IMG/VR virus record: IMGVR_UViG_3300002098_000043 | Span: 1-55,616 of that record | Reading direction: 5' to 3' (one strand) | From: a virus | Lineage: Duplodnaviria > Caudoviricetes | Length of the DNA stretch: 55,616 nt | Shown: one piece after another, positions 2,052 to 26,547 of the stretch | How positions within the stretch are numbered: position 1 is the stretch's first letter | Layout of the letters: each line of letters starts with the position of its first letter | Made by a program: the position numbers and the translations under genes | The notes under the pieces: model-generated | The model's input: only the letters and a program-made list of their open reading frames with translations | What the model was told of the DNA's origin: nothing | Databases searched by the model: none

Positions 2052-2522
2052 TTATTGAAAAATTTGATTAGAAATTGACCAAGATGTAACTATTGGAGTT
2101 GGACTACCCGTACTAGCTAATAACCCTACAGAAATAGCTGCCCCATCCACAACATTAGTTAATTGTCCTATAATACTTATTTGTCCATAAGATGTCCCTG
2201 CTATAGGAGAAGCAATAGTTACTTTACTAATATTATAAGGTAATGTTGATGGAACGCCATTATAATTTAATGTGGCTTTTGCTAAAAAAACATCTGTTGC
2301 CTGAACCTCAGCATTAAATATAATACTAACTGTGTTAGTTGGATTCTTAATTATTCCAGCGGGAATTGTTACAGAAGCCACGGTTATCCCCGATCCTGAA
2401 TTATAAATGTTAGTAGATATAGGAGAACTACCTGAAGTAGCTACTATTACAGAAGAACCACTCCCATCCGCACCTTTTTGTACTGTTATTGAACCGCAAT
2501 TGCAGTTAGAAAATCCACACAT
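2052..2522 (-). CDS. Putative fibre/structural protein
   Basis: N-terminal CGxxxCNC, GADG linker, S/T/G-rich beta C-terminus. Confidence 0.5.
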   Translation of the reverse strand: MCGFSNCNCGSITVQKGADGSGSSVIVATSGSSPISTNIYNSGSGITVASVTIPAGIIKNPTNTVSIIFNAEVQATDVFLAKATLNYNGVPSTLPYNISKVTIASPIAGTSYGQISIIGQLTNVVDGAAISVGLLASTGSPTPIVTSWSISNQIFQ

Positions 2523-2542
2523 AATATTTTTATTTTAAATTA

Positions 2543-3151
2543 TTAATTACACCCACATCCATTAGAACATATATCATTAGCTTTATTTAAAGCCGCTACT
2601 GCATTATCTGAATTACCTACATCCGCCGAAAAATTCGCGGCTAATAGATAACTATAAGCCCTCATTGCATTTAACCAACTTTTTTCAGAGCATCCGCAAT
2701 TGGGATCAATTTTTTGAAACATTTTTGATATGCAGCAACATGTTGAACAATTAACTAATGTTTCAATAGTACCTGTATATGAAAAACCACTTCCGTTTAC
2801 TGTATAAGTTATATCATAAACACCATCATTAATCGTTGGGATTGTTACGTTTGTATAAGTTGCAGCTAAATCAAAACTTGTTAAAGGAAATACTGTTGAA
2901 GATAATTGAGAATAAATATCAACTGCCGTTGCGCCGTTAACCGATACTGCACATGCAGTTATTACATTAGATATGATTGTAAATGTGTATATAACTGTTG
3001 AACTAGTCGTAGCATAATTTATATTTATAATAGCTTGCGTTACTTGTGATGAAGTTATAGCGCTTCCTGTATAGACAGTAGCATCTGTGAATAACAATGT
3101 TGTACAACTATTGTTTGTAACTACTTGTGGTGTAATATTTGGTGCGGACAT
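2543..3151 (-). CDS. Putative crAss-like tail hub protein
   Basis: Beta-rich N-terminus, DGVY motif, Cys-rich helical C-terminus ending GCGCN, as recalled for crAss-like hub proteins. Confidence 0.5.
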   Translation of the reverse strand: MSAPNITPQVVTNNSCTTLLFTDATVYTGSAITSSQVTQAIININYATTSSTVIYTFTIISNVITACAVSVNGATAVDIYSQLSSTVFPLTSFDLAATYTNVTIPTINDGVYDITYTVNGSGFSYTGTIETLVNCSTCCCISKMFQKIDPNCGCSEKSWLNAMRAYSYLLAANFSADVGNSDNAVAALNKANDICSNGCGCN

Positions 3152-3199
3152 TTGTTCTTTAATTTGGAGTAAATATACTAAATATTAAACCTCAGCAAA

Positions 3200-3890
3200 A
3201 TTAGTTTTTTAACATAAACCTCAACAATTCTATGGCGGCCTTATTGCCTCAACACCCAACCGCACAGGTTTCCATATTGTAACATAACATCCAATTATAG
3301 TTGGCGTATCCTAACTGCTAAAATACTGATTTCAAGCGCCGAACTATAATATATCGGGCATATATATACAAAGAGGGACAAGGAAAAACATAGTTATAAC
3401 GACTTAATTAGAAATCCCAAGAACAGCAGAAATTTAACATTGCTTCTTGTCCCATTTGGGATATAGATGCCGCTGGGAATCTTATCAAGTCTACTTATTT
3501 TGATAATAGATAAGACAGCAGAATGTCTATCACGCCAACCGTCAATACCCCAAGAAACATACATTGTACTTCCGTCAGAAAAGATAAATCTCGACACTGA
3601 ATGTAAAAATAATGTAATTTATTTAAAAGATTCTTTAAAAAAGAAATAATCAAAATATATCCGTCAGAGTTTGGAAGGAGATTATACTAACGGTCTCTGG
3701 CTTACTATTTCGATTTCTTTGAAATCGTAGTTCCATCATCCCGATGAAATTTTTGCCCTTCCGCTTCGTGTCTCCTAACGGTCGACACCCAAAGGCTATT
3801 GTAACATAACGTGCAATTATCCTTCGTAAACTTCCGATAATTAACATTATGTGTAAATAACCCCTTCGCAAAAATTTCATATTCTTCATT
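3200..3890 (-). ncRNA. Candidate large structured non-coding RNA
   Basis: Many nested stems, G-U pairs favouring the minus strand, internal repeats, upstream promoter, no convincing ORF. Confidence 0.5.
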
Positions 3891-3898
3891 GTTTTATT

Positions 3899-3930
3899 TA
3901 CTTATACTACAAAGATAAGTAAAAGGTTTC
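3899..3930 (-). promoter_or_regulatory. Promoter: TATCTTTG (-7) overlapping GAAACC-N16-AGTATAA ECF-like motif
   Basis: caaagata at 3910-3917; same layout as 48711-48741. Confidence 0.55.
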
Positions 3931-3931
3931 A

Positions 3932-6900
3932 TTATTCAATAACTTTTTCAATAATATCTATTGATTTCTTGGCTGGTAATAATTTACGAATGTCTTTTAA
4001 CAGATTCTTTTGCTTTTCACCTTCTAAATCTGATATATCCCCCACTATATCCACGAATTTCTCTAAAGTACCCATCGCCGCAACTGGACGCTTAACCATG
4101 AATTTAAGCTGATCTGTATCGAATATAAATAACAAGTTGCCTAAGGCGTTTTCTGCGTCTAAAGCAGTTTTCTTTTTCTTATCGTCGTCGCCTTGATTAG
4201 CCAGTGACCAAAACAATACAACAGTCATAGCCCCTTTAAGGTTACTCATAAAGTTTTTGTTATTGTATAACACCTTTAGTTTTTCAGGAGTTGAATTCGC
4301 TTCTTTAAGTTCAGATTTTAAATCTTTATACGCATCTCCGAACATTTCACGCCACGATCCGCGTTTGGTCTTACCATCACGGGTAATATATTCAGAACCA
4401 TAACGTTCAGCCCACCAATCCAACGCCCATAAGCGAAATTGAAGCCCGACCTTACCAGCTTCATTGTTTTGAATATTACGTTGGTCTTTATCACTATACT
4501 TACCTTGAATATCCGATACTCTATTTTTATAACCAATTAAACGGTTCTTGAGTGCTTTTTCATCCACGCCTTCCTTAACAACTAATTCATCCACGCCGTG
4601 TTCATTCTTTTTATACTCAAAGCTGTTATAATCTTCATCAGTCATTAATCCTAAGAACAGCGACCCTTGAATCTGAAACTCACCATAACGAGTTAAGGCA
4701 TGCCCTAATTCTGAGAATAATTGTCCTGCATAAAGTTTAGGATTAGAACTATAATCAACTGATACTACATCGTATTTACGCAAAATATCCATAGCGTAAG
4801 GATTGATTAATCCGCCACCATAATTACGATCAACTTTATGTTTTCCTAATTCTCCAAACAAACGTTTATGACCTATACCAACTGTTTTGCCATTCTCAGC
4901 ACGCCAGTTATTGTACACTCCGATTGCTAAGTTCATAATACCCGCAGGAACGTTAAATAACATAGTTGTTGAAGATGTCATAAAGCGTAAAAACCTCAAC
5001 ATTAAATCTATTTCAGGTAATATTTGTTTAGGATTTTTAAACAAGTGTAAATCTTTCCATTCTTTAACATATTTAACAACGTTTGGTTTAGCTAAATGTT
5101 CACCATATCCTTTATCGTTTAAATGCTCTATTGCATTAATTATAGGTACAAGTTTGCTATAATGCTTAACGTGTGTCATATCATCTATAAACTCAATTCC
5201 AGCCCTATAAAAATCTTTACTATATCCCCTATCCTTATCGCGTGGTTTATCAAATTTACTTGACAGCACCCCTTTATTATCTACTGAATATTGGCTGTTA
5301 TTTTTAACCAATAATGGGTTTTCCTTTTCATCAACGTTAACACCCTTCTTTAATTGAAGTCTTGCCTGACGATTATATTTAAGTAACAGCGCTAACGATT
5401 TAACTTTACTAACCGCATCTTTTTTGCCATATTCAACAATATTATTCTCAATATCCCCAAATGGCATTACTGATTCAATTTTTGTGTCTGGGTCTTTGAA
5501 TTTAATTCTAACCTGTTTTAAGTTATAATTAGTTCCTAAAAAATTACTAAATGCTTGAGTTATTCCATTTTGTTTATAAGCTTCTCTAAATGAAGGATCA
5601 GTTTTAAGAACTTGTAATGGCATATTGTAAATATCCCCATCCACCAAATTTTTATGTTCTGCGATTAATTCACGATAGAACTTTAAAAAATTAATTTGCG
5701 CTTCACTCAATCCATTATTTTCAGCTTCCTCAACGGTTAACATTTCACCTTTTCCATTATCAATCCAATCAAAATATTTAGCACTGTCTTTAAACGCTAA
5801 TGCCTTTCCTTTTTCTACAATATCCAATCCCTTGTTAAGTTCTTTTATGACAACAGTTCCTAATTTCTCAAAGGTATTTTTCTTTTCTTTTGCATCTGCA
5901 ACTTTATCAAAACTTGCTTCATCAAACATTTTACCAAAAGCCTGTAATTCAGGAACTTTTTCAGTCATGTGACCTAAGTTCTTTACCCAAACATCTTTTG
6001 CTGAAATATCTGCCTTATTAGCTATTTCTTCAATAAATTTCTCGTTCTTGCTCAATTCTCCTTTTTGATTTCTAAATATAGCATAACCAAGTTTACTCAT
6101 AATATTAGACTCAACTGTTTTACGCGCCGCTTCTTGAAAAGCATTTACAACATTATACAATTCAATCATACCATCAATATACTCTTGTTCGGTTATTTTA
6201 CCATTAGTAGCTTTATTTTCTAATTCGCGGATGTCTTCATCTAAAGTAGCTGCCCACTTCATATCTTCTCTATATTCAAACCAAGCTCTTAAATCCTGTT
6301 TCTTTTTATTTTCTAAAACCTGTTTAAGTTTTTCAATTTCATTAATTTCTTCTTCCGTTAAATCAGTATTTTCTAATGCTTGATTTACCCTATTTAAATT
6401 TTCAGCTTCTGCTACAATATCACGTTTTAAAACTTCTCTTGCGTATTGCTCAAAATTCAAAGTCAGTTTTTTAATCTGTTGTTCTTTAGATAATTCTTCA
6501 AATTTCTTATGTAATTGTTCATCCTGAATATTAAATTCATCAGTTTTTAAATTAATTCCCCACACTATTTGCTTCGCTAAGCTCTTAGCAATATTTTCAT
6601 CTATCCCAAATAATTGTTTTAGTCTGTTGAAAATATATTCAAGATATTTCATAAAGACATTTTTTTCACTCTCTTTATCAAATATCCCTTCGCCTTCTCT
6701 ACCAATAGCCTCAGCCAATACTTCATATCCTAAATTTTGTTCATTTAATTCAGGATAACGCTCTTTAGTAATGCTCCATAATTCAGTTCCTTTTAACTGC
6801 TTAATGGCATTAGCAATCACTTTATTATTCATTCCTCCCAACACATCAATAAGAATATGTCCTGCTTCATGTATAGGAGTATCAATTCCCGCAAAATAAG

Positions 6901-9900
6901 GGTTTATAGAGAGTGTTTTATTGGAAGGCGACCATTTACCAGCTGCGTCTAATTTTTTATCATATATGACTTTTATATTAGGTAATACGGATTGTATATG
7001 TTGAGTAACTTTTAATATAGCTTCGTGTTTATCAAGTTCTAAAGTTGGAGTTGACTCCTTTTGTTTCTGAAACACATCTTCATCCCCTTCTTTTCTGCGA
7101 ATAATATCAATTATTTTATTACCCCAAATATAAAATTCATTCTGATTTTCGGAAAGTTTAGTTATTTCATCATTGCCTAATTTTTCAATCTCATCAACAA
7201 TGTCATTAAATGTATTTTCAATCCCTTCATTTTCTGCTTTAGTAAATTTCTCAGAAATAGCTTTTTCCATTGGATTTATTTTTTCTTTCCAACGATCAGC
7301 TAAATTTTGTGCCATATCGGTTCTGTTATCAAAACCAGATAATACTTCTTCAACAGCGTTTAAATAATCACTTGTATCGTATTTTAAATCAGAATTAGCT
7401 TCCCATAATTCATGGGCTATTTCTTGCCTTGTAAGTCCGTGTTTATAAGACCATAAAGTCCATCGACTCTTTTTTTCATTTACATCTCCCTTAAAATATT
7501 TAAGCAAATCATTTCCTTCAACAAGACCATTCTTAATAAAGAATTGAAGCGCTAAATCATAAGGAGTGTTGGCTTCAATTTCCAAAGCCTTTAAACGAAT
7601 AGGTTCTTTTATTTTTCTTTTGTGTCTTGGCTTGCCTTTTGTTTTAAGGCGAGTTTGCGACACTTCTCCAGAAATTTCTTCATTGTTTCTGGTGGTAGAT
7701 TCCGTTCGTGTAACGGCATCCCCTTCTGTTGTGTGTTGTCCTTCATTGATTGCTTCTACGATTTTTTCTGTTTCAGGTTGCGTATTCTCATTTTTATTGC
7801 TAATAGTCTCAACGCTAGGTTGATTTTCTCCAGACGGTCTGTTAATTGCTTCGATTTCATTTTTAGTTAATTTAACTGTTTTTAAATGTTGAAGTTCCTC
7901 ATTTTCTTTTTCTTCTATTTCTTGGGCTTTTTCTTCACCCATCTTTAAAGCCCTATTCTCAAAATATTTTTCATTAGCCTTCCCCTTATCTTCTTCTCTT
8001 ACATATCCTACATGTTTCCCTGTTTCTGCATTATATACAGGTAAAACAATGCGTCCTGTTGTTAATCTTACTGGTTTAATAACAACTTTATGTCCATCAA
8101 AATCTTTAGGTAAATTCTCTATATGTAAATGTCCGCGAAGCTTACTTTTAGTATCAGTAGCAGATGAGGCAAATATCACATACTTATCATTAGGTAATTT
8201 AATATGAACCGTATCATTTCCCTCCTTCATTAGCTTCATTTCACCAACCTGAACCTCATTAGAAGTATCTAAATGTTCTGATAATATTTTAAATTTATCC
8301 CACGCTCGTTTCTGATTCCAATCACTAGTTGGTATCTCTTCAAATATTCTTGTTTCAACTACTTCAGGTTTCTTTGGTTTATTTTCAACCTCAGCAAGTT
8401 CACCTTTATGTTTTTCAAACAAGTCTTTAATACCAGTAACAAATTCTACTTTCTTTTCCCCTTCTTTTGGTTCAGGAGTTAAATTTTTATCAATTTCTTC
8501 AACCGTCTTTTTTGCGGATGTTGTTTCTTTTTTAAGAACTTGTGATTTAAGTAAAATTTCATCAACTTCTTTTTGAATATCCTTCGCCTCTTTCTTTAAA
8601 GTTTGAATTTTAGCCTGTTCAATAGCATTCAATTTATCTTCTTCGTATTCACTTGGGATTTGATTTTCAAGATTAGCCTTTTCAAATGTTAACTCAAATA
8701 CACGTTTCTTATCTTCATCCTTTAATTTAGTATCACGGGTTTGATTATAATATTCTTTATAAGCATTTACTTTAAATGCAGCTTCATCCGCTTCTTGTTT
8801 TGTAATTTTCCCCTGAGACAATTCATTATTAAGATTCTTGTGAAACGCATATATTTTACCCAAATCTCCCTTAGCAATATCAAAAGCGCTATTATTCTGA
8901 GCTTCCTGTTTTGCCATTGCTTTTGCTTTATTATAAGCAACTACTGTTGGCGTTCCGCCAATAAGTCCAGCCATTCCATTTTGGATATATTCACCAAATG
9001 ATTCAGGGCTAAAAGCATCTGTACCGAATTTCTTCTTTTCGGCTGGCGTTAATTTATCCCATAATTGCTCTCCTGCATTTTGAACGAATTGCTGTAAAGC
9101 TTCTTGTCCGCCTTCTGCTAATACATCCTTTGTAGTTAGCTGTCCGATTTTCTTAGCAACCTGAGTATAGCCAGTAGCAGTTACTTTAAGTAATTCCTGC
9201 ATACCATCTTTAGTAATTTTACCCTCAGCGTCCCGCGGAACACCTTTACCAAGCGCTTTTAAAAATGCGTTCTTTTCTTCTTTAGCTACAGGGCTACCAA
9301 ACATCTTTGTTCCCAGACCCCACTTAACATCAATAGCTGAAACTATTGGCGCTACAACAGAGGTAAATAACGCTCTATCGCGTCCTGTTAAGCCAGCTTC
9401 AGTAGCAGCGTCCCTAACTTCACCTAAGTTAGTTAAAGTCGATCCTACCATATTAGCAACAATTTGGGTCTTTTTACCTAAATCCGCCACTCCTAACGCG
9501 CCTTTAGCTGCTTTTGATGCTGCACTGCCACCTACATAAAATTCACCAACAGAACCAAGTAACCCGTTAACCGTTCCCCATAAAGCTTCAGGACTTACAT
9601 CTATACGTTTAGAGTCTAGTAAATCCGACCACTCATCAATACCTTGTGTATTAAATAAAGACTTTTGTAAATCTTCGTCTTTTGTAGCCTTTAAATAATT
9701 AGCCGAATTTTTTAATGTGTTAAGCCATTCCGATTCTTTATTAGTTACACCTTCATATCCTGTTTGTAATAAATCAATAACATTTTCTGCGGATGAGGGC
9801 AATACATTCCATATTGTTTTAGCTAAGTCCGTAAATGGATTGTCATCATTAGCATCTTTTTGGCTTCCCCAAATACTTGCTATTTCATGTCCTACTGGCG

Positions 9901-10303
9901 GACGCTCATTATTCTTTAATGGACGCGGAATACCCTTGTCATCAAAATAATATTTACTGTTATTAGAAACCTCTGTTCCGAAGATAGTACTCATCCCGTT
10001 TTGTTTTGGATGCTTACCTTGTAATGTTAAAATAGCATTACTTAATTCTTCTCCCTTAACACCTTTTAAAGTTAAATCCTTAATAGTTTCTTTTTTACTG
10101 TCGTCTAAATCTGGGATATTATTTATTGTTTCAATAAATGTAGCCGTTGCATCTTGTTTATTCTGAAGCTTAGTTAAAGGATCAACTGTAATAGTTTCAG
10201 TAGCTTTAAATGGCTTATGTGGATTAAAAGCGGGTTTAGCTGAAATATTTTCAGGAGTAAATGGTTTATTTGGATCAAATACTGGTTTAACGTCTTCAGG
10301 CAT
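3932..10303 (-). CDS. Giant virion cargo/ejection protein with zincin (HExxH) metallopeptidase-like domain
   Basis: 2123 aa; PIHEAGH followed by downstream EVLAEAIG; FDPNKPF repeats at N-terminus; position after muzzle and other cargo genes. Confidence 0.7.
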   Translation of the reverse strand: MPEDVKPVFDPNKPFTPENISAKPAFNPHKPFKATETITVDPLTKLQNKQDATATFIETINNIPDLDDSKKETIKDLTLKGVKGEELSNAILTLQGKHPKQNGMSTIFGTEVSNNSKYYFDDKGIPRPLKNNERPPVGHEIASIWGSQKDANDDNPFTDLAKTIWNVLPSSAENVIDLLQTGYEGVTNKESEWLNTLKNSANYLKATKDEDLQKSLFNTQGIDEWSDLLDSKRIDVSPEALWGTVNGLLGSVGEFYVGGSAASKAAKGALGVADLGKKTQIVANMVGSTLTNLGEVRDAATEAGLTGRDRALFTSVVAPIVSAIDVKWGLGTKMFGSPVAKEEKNAFLKALGKGVPRDAEGKITKDGMQELLKVTATGYTQVAKKIGQLTTKDVLAEGGQEALQQFVQNAGEQLWDKLTPAEKKKFGTDAFSPESFGEYIQNGMAGLIGGTPTVVAYNKAKAMAKQEAQNNSAFDIAKGDLGKIYAFHKNLNNELSQGKITKQEADEAAFKVNAYKEYYNQTRDTKLKDEDKKRVFELTFEKANLENQIPSEYEEDKLNAIEQAKIQTLKKEAKDIQKEVDEILLKSQVLKKETTSAKKTVEEIDKNLTPEPKEGEKKVEFVTGIKDLFEKHKGELAEVENKPKKPEVVETRIFEEIPTSDWNQKRAWDKFKILSEHLDTSNEVQVGEMKLMKEGNDTVHIKLPNDKYVIFASSATDTKSKLRGHLHIENLPKDFDGHKVVIKPVRLTTGRIVLPVYNAETGKHVGYVREEDKGKANEKYFENRALKMGEEKAQEIEEKENEELQHLKTVKLTKNEIEAINRPSGENQPSVETISNKNENTQPETEKIVEAINEGQHTTEGDAVTRTESTTRNNEEISGEVSQTRLKTKGKPRHKRKIKEPIRLKALEIEANTPYDLALQFFIKNGLVEGNDLLKYFKGDVNEKKSRWTLWSYKHGLTRQEIAHELWEANSDLKYDTSDYLNAVEEVLSGFDNRTDMAQNLADRWKEKINPMEKAISEKFTKAENEGIENTFNDIVDEIEKLGNDEITKLSENQNEFYIWGNKIIDIIRRKEGDEDVFQKQKESTPTLELDKHEAILKVTQHIQSVLPNIKVIYDKKLDAAGKWSPSNKTLSINPYFAGIDTPIHEAGHILIDVLGGMNNKVIANAIKQLKGTELWSITKERYPELNEQNLGYEVLAEAIGREGEGIFDKESEKNVFMKYLEYIFNRLKQLFGIDENIAKSLAKQIVWGINLKTDEFNIQDEQLHKKFEELSKEQQIKKLTLNFEQYAREVLKRDIVAEAENLNRVNQALENTDLTEEEINEIEKLKQVLENKKKQDLRAWFEYREDMKWAATLDEDIRELENKATNGKITEQEYIDGMIELYNVVNAFQEAARKTVESNIMSKLGYAIFRNQKGELSKNEKFIEEIANKADISAKDVWVKNLGHMTEKVPELQAFGKMFDEASFDKVADAKEKKNTFEKLGTVVIKELNKGLDIVEKGKALAFKDSAKYFDWIDNGKGEMLTVEEAENNGLSEAQINFLKFYRELIAEHKNLVDGDIYNMPLQVLKTDPSFREAYKQNGITQAFSNFLGTNYNLKQVRIKFKDPDTKIESVMPFGDIENNIVEYGKKDAVSKVKSLALLLKYNRQARLQLKKGVNVDEKENPLLVKNNSQYSVDNKGVLSSKFDKPRDKDRGYSKDFYRAGIEFIDDMTHVKHYSKLVPIINAIEHLNDKGYGEHLAKPNVVKYVKEWKDLHLFKNPKQILPEIDLMLRFLRFMTSSTTMLFNVPAGIMNLAIGVYNNWRAENGKTVGIGHKRLFGELGKHKVDRNYGGGLINPYAMDILRKYDVVSVDYSSNPKLYAGQLFSELGHALTRYGEFQIQGSLFLGLMTDEDYNSFEYKKNEHGVDELVVKEGVDEKALKNRLIGYKNRVSDIQGKYSDKDQRNIQNNEAGKVGLQFRLWALDWWAERYGSEYITRDGKTKRGSWREMFGDAYKDLKSELKEANSTPEKLKVLYNNKNFMSNLKGAMTVVLFWSLANQGDDDKKKKTALDAENALGNLLFIFDTDQLKFMVKRPVAAMGTLEKFVDIVGDISDLEGEKQKNLLKDIRKLLPAKKSIDIIEKVIE

Positions 10304-15659: not shown

Positions 15660-16532
15660 TTAAACATTTATTGATTTATTTAGAATTATTTCAAACAAAT
15701 TATCTGTTTTTCTGTAATTATACCTAAAACAAAATTCATTAATATAATTAGCCAAATATCGTCCTGAAATTTGATGAAACTGTCCATAAATACCTCTTTT
15801 TAATATTGCCCAAAATCCTTCAATACTATTTGTATAGAATCCATTTTTAGAAAATATACCTTGTTGATGATTAACTACTTTGTGTTTATATTCATCCTCT
15901 AAACCTTTATAACCGCCAAATCCATCAGTAACAATTGTAGACCCTTTTAAAATATATCCTTTTATAAACGGGTGTAAAGATTCTTGCGAAGGCGTTTCGC
16001 TCATTATAAAACAAGCCACTTTTCCGCCTTGTTCCAACATTCCTAATATTGGTGTTTTATTTACATATCCCCGTCCTTTTTTATTATGAATATCCCGTTG
16101 CCATTTATGTTGATTAGAAACATCTGGACCATGAAAATATTCATCCATTTGAACAATTCCACTTAAATAATCTATTTTTTCAATAAAAGCTTTACGAATT
16201 CTCATAAGCATAAACCAAGCTGTGTTTTTATTTATTTTAAGTTCTCTTGATAACTGCATAGCGCTAATGCCTTTTTTAGCATTAACCACTGTAGAAATAG
16301 CTAAAAACCACTTTCTAAGATCACATTTAGTATTGTGAAATATGGTATTAATGGTTACACTAAATGTTTTATTACAAGAATTACAATGATGCCGTAATTC
16401 TTTTTTCGCGGATGAAATTTTAACTGATTGACAATAAGGGCATATAGGCTTATTATTCCAACGAATCTTCTCTAAATACTTAATACAGTGTTTTTCTGTT
16501 TTAAAAGTTTCATATATTTGCAGTATATTCAT
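15660..16532 (-). CDS. IS1595-family (ISXO2-like) DDE transposase, intact
   Basis: Zn ribbon CPYC...CNSC, HTH, DEYF, TDGFGGY, NSIEGFW..LKR, YINEFCFRYN motifs. Confidence 0.93.
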   Translation of the reverse strand: MNILQIYETFKTEKHCIKYLEKIRWNNKPICPYCQSVKISSAKKELRHHCNSCNKTFSVTINTIFHNTKCDLRKWFLAISTVVNAKKGISAMQLSRELKINKNTAWFMLMRIRKAFIEKIDYLSGIVQMDEYFHGPDVSNQHKWQRDIHNKKGRGYVNKTPILGMLEQGGKVACFIMSETPSQESLHPFIKGYILKGSTIVTDGFGGYKGLEDEYKHKVVNHQQGIFSKNGFYTNSIEGFWAILKRGIYGQFHQISGRYLANYINEFCFRYNYRKTDNLFEIILNKSINV

Positions 16533-24746: not shown

Positions 24747-25219
24747 TGTTTAATACTATAATTAACCATTGTGTTTTTTAAAGCCCTATGAATAGTATTG
24801 GATAATTTAGGATTAGAATGAAAATACACATCGTTTCTTGGATTTGCCAAGTGTTCAAAATGTATTTTATACTTTATTCCCATATGCCTTAAACTTATAC
24901 TATTTGCTTTAACTATTTTATCTCCTCTTAAAATTTTACCTTCTTTCATTAACCTAAAAGCTGTTGTTCCTTCTTTTATTACTTCTCCCACCACAAACAA
25001 CCTATTCTTTTTATCTAAATATACTACTTCATTCTTTGCTAATTCATCCGCAACAAAATATTTACAATAATCCCTCCAAACCTTTTTTATCTGCGAGTCT
25101 TTTGGTGTATAACCAAACTTTTTCTTAATTCTTCTTTTCAAAGAATCAATTATTCGCTGTTGGTTATAACGACCTTTGTTCTTGAAGTGTACTCGCGCCT
25201 TTTGCTTGTCGTTCTGCAT
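24743..25219 (-). CDS. Basic IHF/HU-like protein
   Basis: K/R-rich; syntenic with crAss-like IHF genes between ring genes. Confidence 0.45.
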   Translation of the reverse strand: MQNDKQKARVHFKNKGRYNQQRIIDSLKRRIKKKFGYTPKDSQIKKVWRDYCKYFVADELAKNEVVYLDKKNRLFVVGEVIKEGTTAFRLMKEGKILRGDKIVKANSISLRHMGIKYKIHFEHLANPRNDVYFHSNPKLSNTIHRALKNTMVNYSIKQ

Positions 25220-26033
25220 CTATATTATCATTTTTAGTATCAACTATCATATTATCTTGTATTTGGAATTCTTTAGTTAAAATTTCTAAAATAATTTCTC
25301 TTGCCATTTCTCCTCCAACAGGATAATCACTTGTTTCTTCAAATGCTGTTACTTGGTCGTATAAATATACATTACCATTACCTGTAAACGTTGTTGCAAC
25401 ACCGCCTATAAATGTATCGTTAGGATTGTAAGTAATTGTATTATAAACAATATTTCCAAACTTAACAATGTATTTTGTTCCGCTCACAATATTTCCACTT
25501 ACAATTGGCTCGGAGTTTATTATAAATCCGTCCTCTGGATATAAAAGTATTGGAGATAATCTTAATCTTGTTGCCCCCCCTGTTGCATATAAAGTAGTGT
25601 TATATCTTGAATAATATTTAAACTTAGACATTGTACTATCGGAAGGAATATTTTGCAATAGCTGTAATGGTCGCGGATAATATGCATATTTACCACACGC
25701 AGAAAATAACGACCATATACCAACATCCTGATTAGATGCACCTGAATTTGTTAAAGATATTACAGGGGGAATAGTTGTTTTCATCATATCACAATTACAA
25801 AATGTAACTGTTGGATCATCCGCCACTGTAATTTTATAAAAATTAATATAGAAAGGTTGAGTTACCCATGCAAAATCTACTGTCTCATTAATTGCATAAT
25901 TACGAATAATTAATTGAGCGCGAGTCTGGTCTATAAGCTCACTAATGAACCTGTCGGACAGACGCGAATCATCGTTTGGCGCGTTTCTTTGCAAAATTAA
26001 CAAAGCCTCATCTATTAGACTCTTTTTTGTCAT
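25164..26033 (-). CDS. Tail ring protein (start revised to MTKKSLIDE)
   Basis: DDSRLSDR.I...I...RA.LI ring-type N-terminus; upstream extension in ORF track overlaps promoter and terminator. Confidence 0.6.
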   Translation of the reverse strand: MTKKSLIDEALLILQRNAPNDDSRLSDRFISELIDQTRAQLIIRNYAINETVDFAWVTQPFYINFYKITVADDPTVTFCNCDMMKTTIPPVISLTNSGASNQDVGIWSLFSACGKYAYYPRPLQLLQNIPSDSTMSKFKYYSRYNTTLYATGGATRLRLSPILLYPEDGFIINSEPIVSGNIVSGTKYIVKFGNIVYNTITYNPNDTFIGGVATTFTGNGNVYLYDQVTAFEETSDYPVGGEMAREIILEILTKEFQIQDNMIVDTKNDNIDAERQAKGASTLQEQRSL

Positions 26034-26036
26034 GTT

Positions 26037-26044
26037 CAAATATA
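26037..26044 (-). promoter_or_regulatory. TATATTTG -7 promoter box
   Basis: Exact TAnnTTTG, 3 nt before ATG 26033. Confidence 0.6.
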
Positions 26045-26061
26045 ATAAATATAATAAACAA

Positions 26062-26087
26062 AAAAGCCACATTTTATTGTGACTTTT
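26062..26087 (-). terminator. Intrinsic terminator
   Basis: aaaagccaca...tgtgactttt hairpin after spanin-like genes. Confidence 0.55.
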
Positions 26088-26127: not shown

Positions 26128-26547
26128 TTATTTATGTAAATATAGATTTAATCCTTCTACTAATATTAACAAAATATTAACCGAAACCGAGCCTATAATA
26201 ATTTTACCCCTTCGATTAACCTTGTCCTGTGCTTTAGAATATTTATCGGAAAATTGAATTGCAGATGCTTTATAATTATCTGCTAAATTCTTTTGTGACT
26301 TATTTTGCTCTTTTAGGTCATATTCATTAGCTCTATATAGAGCAATACGCGCGTCTTTGTCTCTTATTTGAGACTTATATTCAATCGTATCTTTTAGAAG
26401 CGTCTTATAAGCTAATTCGTGGTAAACAAGAGAATCCAATACAGAAATATCCACACATACTTTATTTCCACACTTTGTTATAGTTTGCGAGAATAGAATC
26501 GTAGGCGCGCAAACGAGAATCAATATCAAGGTTTTTAAGATTTTCAT
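26128..26547 (-). CDS. Spanin-like protein
   Basis: Signal-like N-terminus, coiled coil, C-terminal hydrophobic segment; overlaps upstream gene. Confidence 0.45.
   Translation of the reverse strand: MKILKTLILILVCAPTILFSQTITKCGNKVCVDISVLDSLVYHELAYKTLLKDTIEYKSQIRDKDARIALYRANEYDLKEQNKSQKNLADNYKASAIQFSDKYSKAQDKVNRRGKIIIGSVSVNILLILVEGLNLYLHK

Follow-up and report, generated by a model that had tools for sequence, protein, structure and literature searches.

The gap at positions 3152 to 3931 (780 nucleotides [nt], minus strand) of the IMG/VR virus record IMGVR_UViG_3300002098_000043, a 55.6-kb stretch of 55,616 nt that is analyzed here as a whole and called the window, is an insertion that carries a duplicated, conserved, and strongly folded element, and relatives of this element occur in the chromosomes of Bacteroidota, where many contain a motif resembling the recombination site dif. 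Our leading, though tentative, explanation is that 3152-3931 is an exchangeable module bounded by folded dif-like recombination hairpins, which a recombinase would bind and which would make the module mobile. The window has inverted terminal repeats, and we assign it to a crAss-like phage because the Pfam matches among its proteins include the muzzle, ring 1, ring 2, and major capsid proteins of crAss type. Its DNA is present in four freshwater metagenome runs, two of which may be its source. The gap lies between the stop of a gene for a protein of 2123 amino acids (aa) on its upstream flank (3932-10303, minus strand) and the start of a gene for a 202-aa protein with a Cys-rich C terminus on its downstream flank (2543-3151, minus strand).

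The C-terminal part of the 2123-aa protein recovers 13 related viral loci (loci and genomes are numbered here with L and G, respectively). In all eight loci that reach beyond the big gene (L003 to L006, L008, and L010 to L012), a homolog of the 202-aa protein (223 to 227 aa, 30 to 34% identity, E down to 2e-34) starts about 30 nt past the big gene's stop. Since these eight relatives have only some 30 nt at the site, the gap is an insertion, and such insertions occupy differing sites in related phages. Locus L027 has a 1,325-nt gap at the same site, likewise beginning with the element. The sequence of the closest relative, G001 (62% protein identity), breaks off within the big gene; G001 and the window are colinear, with 64 to 74% nucleotide identity over long matches. 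Positions 3710-3880 of the window match G001:18813-18983 at 87% over 171 nt (90.8% in a 141-nt core), and this match is out of synteny: in G001 it falls in a gap of about 1.2 kb between the homologs of two genes that in the window lie 55 nt from each other (26128-26547 and 25164-26072). Locus L015 is this G001 locus with its element; the record L023 is near-identical to G001 and thus adds no independent evidence.

The conserved element, which we call type A, is predicted to fold on the minus strand into a three-way junction of 137 nt (3744-3880), with a minimum free energy (MFE) of -45.8 kcal/mol and a z score of -6.88 against 200 shuffles; the corresponding values for the plus strand are -32.3 kcal/mol and -5.78 (200 shuffles). 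The junction consists of P1 (3868-3880/3744-3756), whose perfect 13-bp stem had been recognized in the original prediction, the long hairpin P2 (3791-3865), and P3 (3768-3788). Common to all family members is a hairpin core (3782-3866, minus strand), delimited by a covariance model, R1, that we built from seven sequences of the P2 core. R1 has one strong match in the window (3782-3866, 89 bits, E 7e-17) and one each in G001 and G002, with no strong match in G003 to G005. It misses a partial second copy in the window, type B (3249-3350, minus strand), because the 5' arm of that copy is degenerate. The type B copy has an extended distal stem (3294-3306/3337-3350) and a 3' arm (3275-3298) that repeats 3797-3820 over 24 nt at 92% identity; both the repeat and the stem, the latter as 3294-3302/3342-3350, bear out earlier observations on this DNA. 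It aligns with the type B copies of L015, L027, L029, and L033 (alignment A5); in L027, G001, and the window, type B is extended or interrupted in its distal part, as seen by eye and in this alignment. A gapped self-alignment of the gap scores 50, against a shuffle mean of 36.6 (standard deviation 5.5, maximum 54); as this lies within the shuffle range, only the 24-nt repeat stands alone as internal similarity.

The layout is therefore type A, then cargo, then type B with a conserved tail. In L029, copy 1, a 208-aa membrane-like open reading frame (ORF), and copy 2 follow one another, with both copies on the same strand, and R1 finds two copies in L033 as well. The cargo differs from genome to genome: a reverse-strand 125-aa ORF in L027, a tRNA-like stretch and a ribbon-helix-helix (RHH)-like ORF in G001, and nothing recognizable in the window. 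Here, the stretch between the copies is an unconserved middle of about 340 nt (3361-3700, no strand assigned), possibly decayed cargo, which has ORFs of 52 to 67 aa only, no significant fold (z -1.27, minus strand), and no homolog in G001 or among the cargo of other cassettes; conversely, the cargo proteins of other cassettes have left no remnant in the window. The tail (3152-3266, minus strand) holds UGUGCGGUUGGG (3255-3266), CCGCCAUA (3231-3238), and GYUGAGGUUU (3216-3225 and 3187-3196). CCGCCAUA recurs in the tails of L015 and L027, and UGUGCGGUKGGG with two or three GYUGAGGUU motifs follows type B in L027, G001, and the window, just before the next gene.

Several features of these loci were observed in passing. 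The motif GYTGAGGTT(T) occurs in two to three copies just 5' of the gene after each insert (window 3187-3196 and 3216-3225; L015:560-640; L027:4100-4140; L029:2740-2780), and the motif GCTGAGGTTT, with at most one mismatch, has 8 matches in the window against 2.8 expected. The tRNA-like stretch of the G001 insert (L015:1240-1320, minus strand) reaches 21.7 bits with the Rfam tRNA model, below the gathering score, with no ARAGORN call, and is adjoined by the small RHH/CopG-like ORF (L015 878-1078). In L027, a 28-nt direct repeat that includes the small postjunction hairpin (3143-3170 and 3363-3390) flanks about 220 nt and looks like a secondary insertion inside the element. L032, a bacterial-looking contig with a MerTP-like gene, carries three same-strand hairpins within 3 kb (950-1090, 2013-2100, and 2950-3064) and an unrelated 142-nt direct repeat of 96% identity (118-259 and 1675-1816). 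L031 is a metagenome contig of 2,746 nt in which the hairpin is enclosed by an A-run/T-run stem and one end has GC-rich tandem repeats; its 343-aa ORF shows HUH-like and Tyr motifs and, by eye, could encode a rolling-circle Rep protein.

The element extends well beyond phages. A 19-base pattern from the 5' arm matched at least 120 stretches in species-representative genomes; among the 80 matching loci listed, 69 are from Bacteroidota, going by the record titles, 55 hold both arms (regular-expression search), and 16 carry a total of 21 R1 matches under default filters. An earlier scan of genome contigs with a short-loop pattern gave no stretches. R1 matched 4 of 61 Flavobacteriaceae genomes, but this fraction is unusable as a prevalence because only 74 candidates were scored per genome and a known carrier, G009, was missed. 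A defense island in the Bacteroidales genome G006 has three R1 hairpins, all on the same strand, interspersed with AAA-ATPase, YefM-YoeB, MNT-HEPN, and PIN cassettes; restriction and CBASS-like genes are adjacent. This island (L168; G006:C43:74600-94507) includes BglII-type and TdeIII-type restriction genes, a SMODS and NUDIX pair, a LexA-like gene, and a GHKL ATPase gene; the defense genes are followed by the toxin-antitoxin (TA) cassettes (YefM-YoeB, MNT-HEPN, and PIN), which the hairpin separates. At other bacterial loci the neighbors are diverse and include housekeeping genes (the flanking-gene scan covered 97 of 102 ORFs, with five L098 ORFs scanned separately). Taking the hairpin's own direction as reference, 32 of the 40 next ORFs (80 aa or longer) are convergent.

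At many of these loci the hairpin terminates a conserved noncoding element of about 450 to 680 nt, referred to as the ~650-nt element, whose four sequence groups cross-match in their upstream parts and which is found twice on one contig in the pairs L067/L113 and L047/L097. It is exemplified by L113:1299-1935 (plus strand) and is also seen in L046, L052, L067, L115, L075, L088, L105, and others, from Cytophagales, Flavobacteriales, and Chitinophagaceae; sometimes a lone 3'-arm-like motif, ATTATGTTAAGTAA, precedes it. Profiles of the ~650-nt element match the phage copies in the hairpin only, and Rfam gives no match to it. It could be a large RNA or an integrated noncoding element.

What links these hairpins to dif is their 3' arm. 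The arrangement ATAA-N6-TTATGTTAAAT occurs in 28 of 52 bacterial copies, and TTATGTTAAAT is the exact XerD arm of Escherichia coli dif as printed (PMC3025954), so that the 11-nt match to the XerD-arm consensus is complete in these copies. The spacing of ATAA, 6 nt, and TTATGT holds in 32 of the 52; others are spaced by 0 to 12 nt, and three have no ATAA within 16 nt. Over the whole 28-mer, the two bacterial copies tested reach a best identity to dif of 19 to 21 of 28. In the window, the 3' arm TTATGTTACAA agrees with the XerD arm at 9 of 11 positions by eye. The hairpin is formed by inverted dif-like arms, and where dif has its central region the fold has an internal loop; a single-stranded stage is plausible only for L031, given its Rep-like ORF judged by eye, and would not be expected of the double-stranded window phage. 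The complete genome G009 contains the dif-like pattern once, with no match for a reversed control. XerC/D-like tyrosine recombinases are encoded in all five host genomes and equally in all 14 control genomes.

On these grounds we propose the following mechanism. A small module sits as an insertion between the two co-directional late genes of the crAss-like phage. On either side it is delimited by one copy of a conserved element, both copies on the same strand, whose imperfect inverted repeats are predicted to fold into a hairpin; the upstream copy is intact and elaborated to the three-way junction, and the downstream copy is partial, with the conserved tail behind it. In many chromosomal copies, the 3' arm reads as a canonical dif-like site: the end of a XerC arm, then an exact XerD arm at a spacing of 6 nt. 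Mapped onto the folded hairpin, the XerD arm falls on the base and middle stems, the XerC-arm end on the distal stem, and the central region on the internal loop. Such hairpins may be substrates of host Xer-type tyrosine recombinases or of a related recombinase, and they would let cargo modules be gained, lost, and swapped among phage genomes and host DNA. We favor this explanation because of the insertion, the conservation out of synteny, the paired copies around variable cargo, the distribution in hosts, the dif likeness, and the G006 context, and also because of a microvirus precedent (PMC3091885), the occurrence of the hairpin together with a Rep-like ORF in L031, and invariant stems with variable loops.

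Several observations weigh against this explanation. The phage copies are without a canonical linear 28-mer, their best identity to E. coli dif being 13 to 18 of 28, and the 18 of 28 found for the window is equalled by 1% of random 137-nt window pieces. The G009 match, at 399,900 on a 3.8-Mb chromosome, is not opposite dnaA (25-1416); lying 0.40 Mb from dnaA, it is not established as the chromosomal dif. In the window, no recombinase turned up next to the cassette. DNA contigs of the four freshwater runs are identical over 2900-4200, with no joint, excised, or empty-site variant among them. CrAss-like phages have double-stranded DNA, and a folded single-strand substrate therefore needs a special explanation. 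The G-U (G-T) pairs, the stability advantage of the minus strand, and the upstream promoter box fit an RNA equally well. Finally, chromosome dimer resolution in Bacteroidetes was unstudied as of PMC3091885.

It is tempting to speculate, although we consider it rather unlikely in this full form, that a hitherto undescribed system of module exchange is common to Bacteroidota and their phages, crAss-like phages among them. In such a system, long folded hairpins that mimic dif would be recombined by host Xer-type enzymes and would bound TA and defense genes, phage morons, and the ~650-nt element. Bolder still would be the corollary that such a hairpin serves some crAss-like phages without an integrase for integration at, or recombination with, a dif-like site of the host.

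The alternative that survives best, which we regard as possible but less probable than a recombination module, is a promoter-proximal structured RNA of about 140 to 180 nt, transcribed from the minus strand and starting at or near the base of P1. It might act as a cis-acting leader (a stabilizer, processing, or antitermination signal) or as a small RNA, and the cassette-like layout would then be secondary. The fold itself speaks for an RNA, in its z score of -6.88 and in a minus strand that is 13.5 kcal/mol more stable than the plus strand, as do G-U pairs on the sense strand only (11 cells among seven sequences, and 31 of 404 cells in the bacterial core). RNAalifold, applied to the window, L015, and L027, yields 53 pairs, nine of which change on both sides, including pairs in P1, distal P2, P3, and a small hairpin downstream of the junction (CGAUUUC/GAAAUCG, 3711-3727, minus strand), although part of the L027 P2 base looks misaligned in the input; in the small hairpin, 2 of 7 pairs change on both sides among the three sequences. 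In the bacterial core, 93% of stem cells are paired, but covariation is weak: 7 of 20 pairs never vary, and only 3 of 20 change on both sides, a number reached by 137 of 500 shuffles. Near-invariant stems combined with highly variable loops of 8 to more than 100 nt are a pattern that argues against an RNA.

A promoter had been proposed at 3899-3930, where a sigma-70 scan finds none. By eye, TATCTTTG (3910-3917, minus strand), 29 nt upstream of the junction, fits TAnnTTTG, which we take to be the Bacteroidetes -7 consensus, and is thus a candidate -7 box; the same box stands 4 to 7 nt before a conserved AUG in L015, in copy 1 of L029/L033, and in L032. Of the 10 copies from phages or metagenomes, 4 have a -7 box within 45 nt upstream of the hairpin (background, 2.5%), which favors an RNA, but only 1 of 58 bacterial copies has one, and type B copies are without it (the near-identity of L029 and L033 makes these counts partly nonindependent, and one chance regular-expression pair in L029 was dropped). 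No terminator was found in a scan of 2400-4400. Rfam, whose families considered include GOLLD, ROOL, HEARO, group II intron, tRNA, and others, gives no match at the gathering score in the window; at E of 10 or below, the sole match over 3100-4000 is a chance microRNA, and there is no relevant match in L015, L098, L104, L117, L047, L107, L113, L075, L105, or L046. The position of the bacterial hairpin at the end of the ~650-nt noncoding element, with the next gene mostly convergent, would again suit an RNA. However, an RNA leaves the paired copies around variable cargo and the exact XerD-arm motif unexplained, and the occurrence of a hairpin with a dif-like motif throughout Bacteroidota chromosomes favors a recombination site at the DNA level at least as much as an RNA.

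Somewhat less probable again, and in our view unlikely, is a generic mobile regulatory cassette or a repeat resembling a miniature inverted-repeat transposable element (MITE), that is, a portable terminator-promoter unit, comparable to PeSL in T4-type phages or to Neisseria Correia elements, which would spread and shuffle cargo through homologous or illegitimate recombination and not through Xer. Such a unit would account for copies that flank variable ORFs at differing sites in related phages, and for the overlap of a -7 box with the 3' end of the hairpin (TAGCTTTG), for which the background is 1.2%: the overlap occurs in 6 of the 10 copies from phages or metagenomes and in 7 of the 58 from bacteria. 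Precedents exist: PeSL promoter-stem-loop units are described as mediating modular shuffling (PMC2839356 and PMC4122927), and MITEs common to Bacteroidota and their viruses have been reported (PMC11602168). Of the features of a MITE, the inverted arms are present, but no target-site duplication is visible by eye at the hairpin ends, and copy number is low, with one strong R1 match per phage genome (the window, G001, and G002) and few, clustered matches in bacterial genomes, at one to three copies per locus. Furthermore, the IS1595 transposase gene of the window has no matching inverted repeats, and the exact XerD-arm motif with its 6-nt spacing is left unexplained by a generic cassette.

It is quite improbable that the element is a small protein gene, with the RNA structure merely modulating translation of a basic peptide. 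The original prediction saw no credible protein in this region; a 79-aa ORF (3650-3889, minus strand) in fact spans the junction, but it is unlikely to be a conserved gene. The window (79 aa), L015/G001 (109 aa), and L027 (94 aa) all keep this frame open, beyond the conserved part in each case, and the L027 indels preserve the frame. Its AUG is conserved at the 5' end beside the -7 box, as expected of a leaderless mRNA, but this start codon is buried in the perfect 13-bp stem. Codon-level conservation, which had been named as a finding that would speak against a noncoding RNA, is present only weakly: 6 of the 18 codons that differ between the window and G001 are synonymous and 12 are nonsynonymous, and several of the synonymous changes coincide with structure-preserving ones. 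Elsewhere, the ORF shrinks to 37 aa (L028/L033), 15 aa (L031), or 5 aa (L032) although the nucleotide hairpin is retained. Pfam and PHROG have no match for it, and a word-indexed search of 5.8 billion proteins returned only two known forms of the ORF. A full HMMER scan of 1.84 billion representative proteins added three relatives, two of them frameshifted: P0003 (94 aa) resembles the L027 ORF, their letter-for-letter identity being unconfirmed, while for P0006 and P0007 the match to the window is in frame -3 over residues 1 to 26 and in frame -2 over about residues 29 to 49 (E of 0.044 and 0.007), with a weak frame -1 match for P0006 (E of 1.8). Matches in shifting frames mean that the nucleotides are conserved and the frame is not; the frame is kept in three members and lost or shifted in L028/L033, L031, L032, P0006, and P0007, which is not the picture of a reading frame under purifying selection. 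We rate the protein gene this low because the frame is not conserved, the ORF is shortened elsewhere, and pair changes preserve the structure.

The weakest candidate is the one from which this work started, a single structured noncoding RNA of about 700 nt over 3200-3890, of the GOLLD/ROOL kind or a new class, which we consider very improbable: the 691 nt as a whole do fold better than shuffles (z of -2.79 on the minus strand and -3.97 on the plus strand, 20 shuffles each), and the bacterial hairpins end a noncoding element of comparable length, but the folding signal is confined to 3744-3880 and is no better than shuffles outside 3700-3880 (z of +0.48 for 3152-3360, minus strand), the middle has no homolog, the profiles of the bacterial element match the phage copies nowhere but in the hairpin, L029 has a protein gene and L027 a reverse-strand ORF as cargo, and the likeness to GOLLD or ROOL fails in the Rfam covariance-model search. 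The earlier observation was thus real but local, describing a conserved, strongly folding, strand-asymmetric element with a length of about 140 to 180 nt and not 700. The stems and repeats listed there are present, among the smaller ones the GGGACAAG/CTTGTCCC stem, which lies within a 26-nt imperfect inverted repeat (3357-3382/3446-3471), and the direct repeats 3687-3695/3775-3783 and 3552-3579/3641-3668.

If the hairpins are recombination sites, their nearest known counterparts are the folded attachment site of CTX-phi and the Xer-exploiting mobile elements (IMEX) of its type, which likewise have two imperfect inverted dif-like half-regions, a variable spacer, and a forked hairpin and need no integrase. 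Small modules, often of TA genes, bounded by Xer-type sites and shuffled between replicons are also known as the plasmid dif (pdif) modules of Acinetobacter, which the G006 array of TA cassettes resembles; however, pdif boundaries are described as single 28-bp sites of alternating orientation on Acinetobacter plasmids, whereas here a long hairpin holds both orientations on one strand, in Bacteroidota and their phages. Integron attC sites are similar in lying between cassettes, on a single strand, and among TA and defense cassettes. The attC core consensus is RYYYAAC/GTTRRRY, and the middle stem ACATAAC/GTTATGT fits only 6 of 7 positions of this consensus, by eye; the element does not qualify as attC, it has an extra outer stem, and the integron integrase model TIGR02249 scores above its cutoff in none of five genomes, so that this enzyme was rejected.

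Further parallels come from published phage elements. Xer-mediated integration at dif-like sites was proposed for microviruses of Bacteroidetes, in some of which an inverted second site was called "reminiscent of CTX-phi" (PMC3091885); these are phages of the relevant hosts, and the small contig L031 with its Rep-like ORF is of a similar kind. The element described here differs from CTX-phi and the microviruses in that it resides in double-stranded crAss-like genomes, is paired around small cargo rather than present once per genome, and has phage copies that diverged from the linear dif consensus, with no integration junction seen. Like attC sites, including phage attC clusters (PMC9892861), the hairpin is imperfect, with two stems, an internal loop, and a highly variable terminal part; few integrons are reported for Bacteroidetes with IntegronFinder (PMC9024848). 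The PeSL of T4-type phages (PMC2839356 and PMC4122927) similarly combine a conserved intergenic stem-loop with a promoter and flank variable ORFs in plastic regions, but the sequences and the phage and host groups are unrelated, and the hairpin here is 65 to 140 nt long, shared with host chromosomes, and endowed with a dif-like motif. GOLLD and ROOL are likewise noncoding and phage borne, and in G001 the element adjoins tRNA-like sequence; their 600 to 800 nt compare with a conserved structured part of 140 to 180 nt here. We found no description of the hairpin in the literature, although supplements, including the MITE tables of PMC11602168, were not covered, so that it may already have been published.

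The 2123-aa protein has no Pfam or PHROG family match; by eye, it contains an HExxH-like motif (HEAGH), and its relatives measure 1660 to 1820 aa across the stretch fetched. No close relatives of the 202-aa protein were found in viral contigs, and a metagenome scan with protein patterns matched 136 stretches, none of which was confirmed. Annotated phages gave no DNA match to the gap. A tRNA or tmRNA in the gap was rejected, with ARAGORN finding none in the window or L015, and so was an alternative genetic code, since all three stop types break every frame of 3152-3931. Inside the virion module lies a gene for an IS1595-family (ISXO2-like) DDE transposase with a zinc ribbon (15660-16532, minus strand), around which no clear terminal inverted repeats were found; IS1595 was rejected as the parent of the hairpin, as the inverted repeats do not match.

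The bacterial ~650-nt element, which ends in the hairpin, has more than one copy per genome, and is without an Rfam family, is of independent interest. Should the hairpin be an RNA instead of a recombination site, it would represent a new and widely distributed structured motif of Bacteroidota and their phages. If the hairpins are indeed substrates of Xer-type recombinases, they would provide crAss-like phages and Bacteroidota with a means of exchanging cassettes, akin to dif modules or integrons. The traffic of small accessory genes into and out of phage genomes that are otherwise colinear would then be easier to explain, and the shared sequence would link these uncultured freshwater phages to Bacteroidota hosts.

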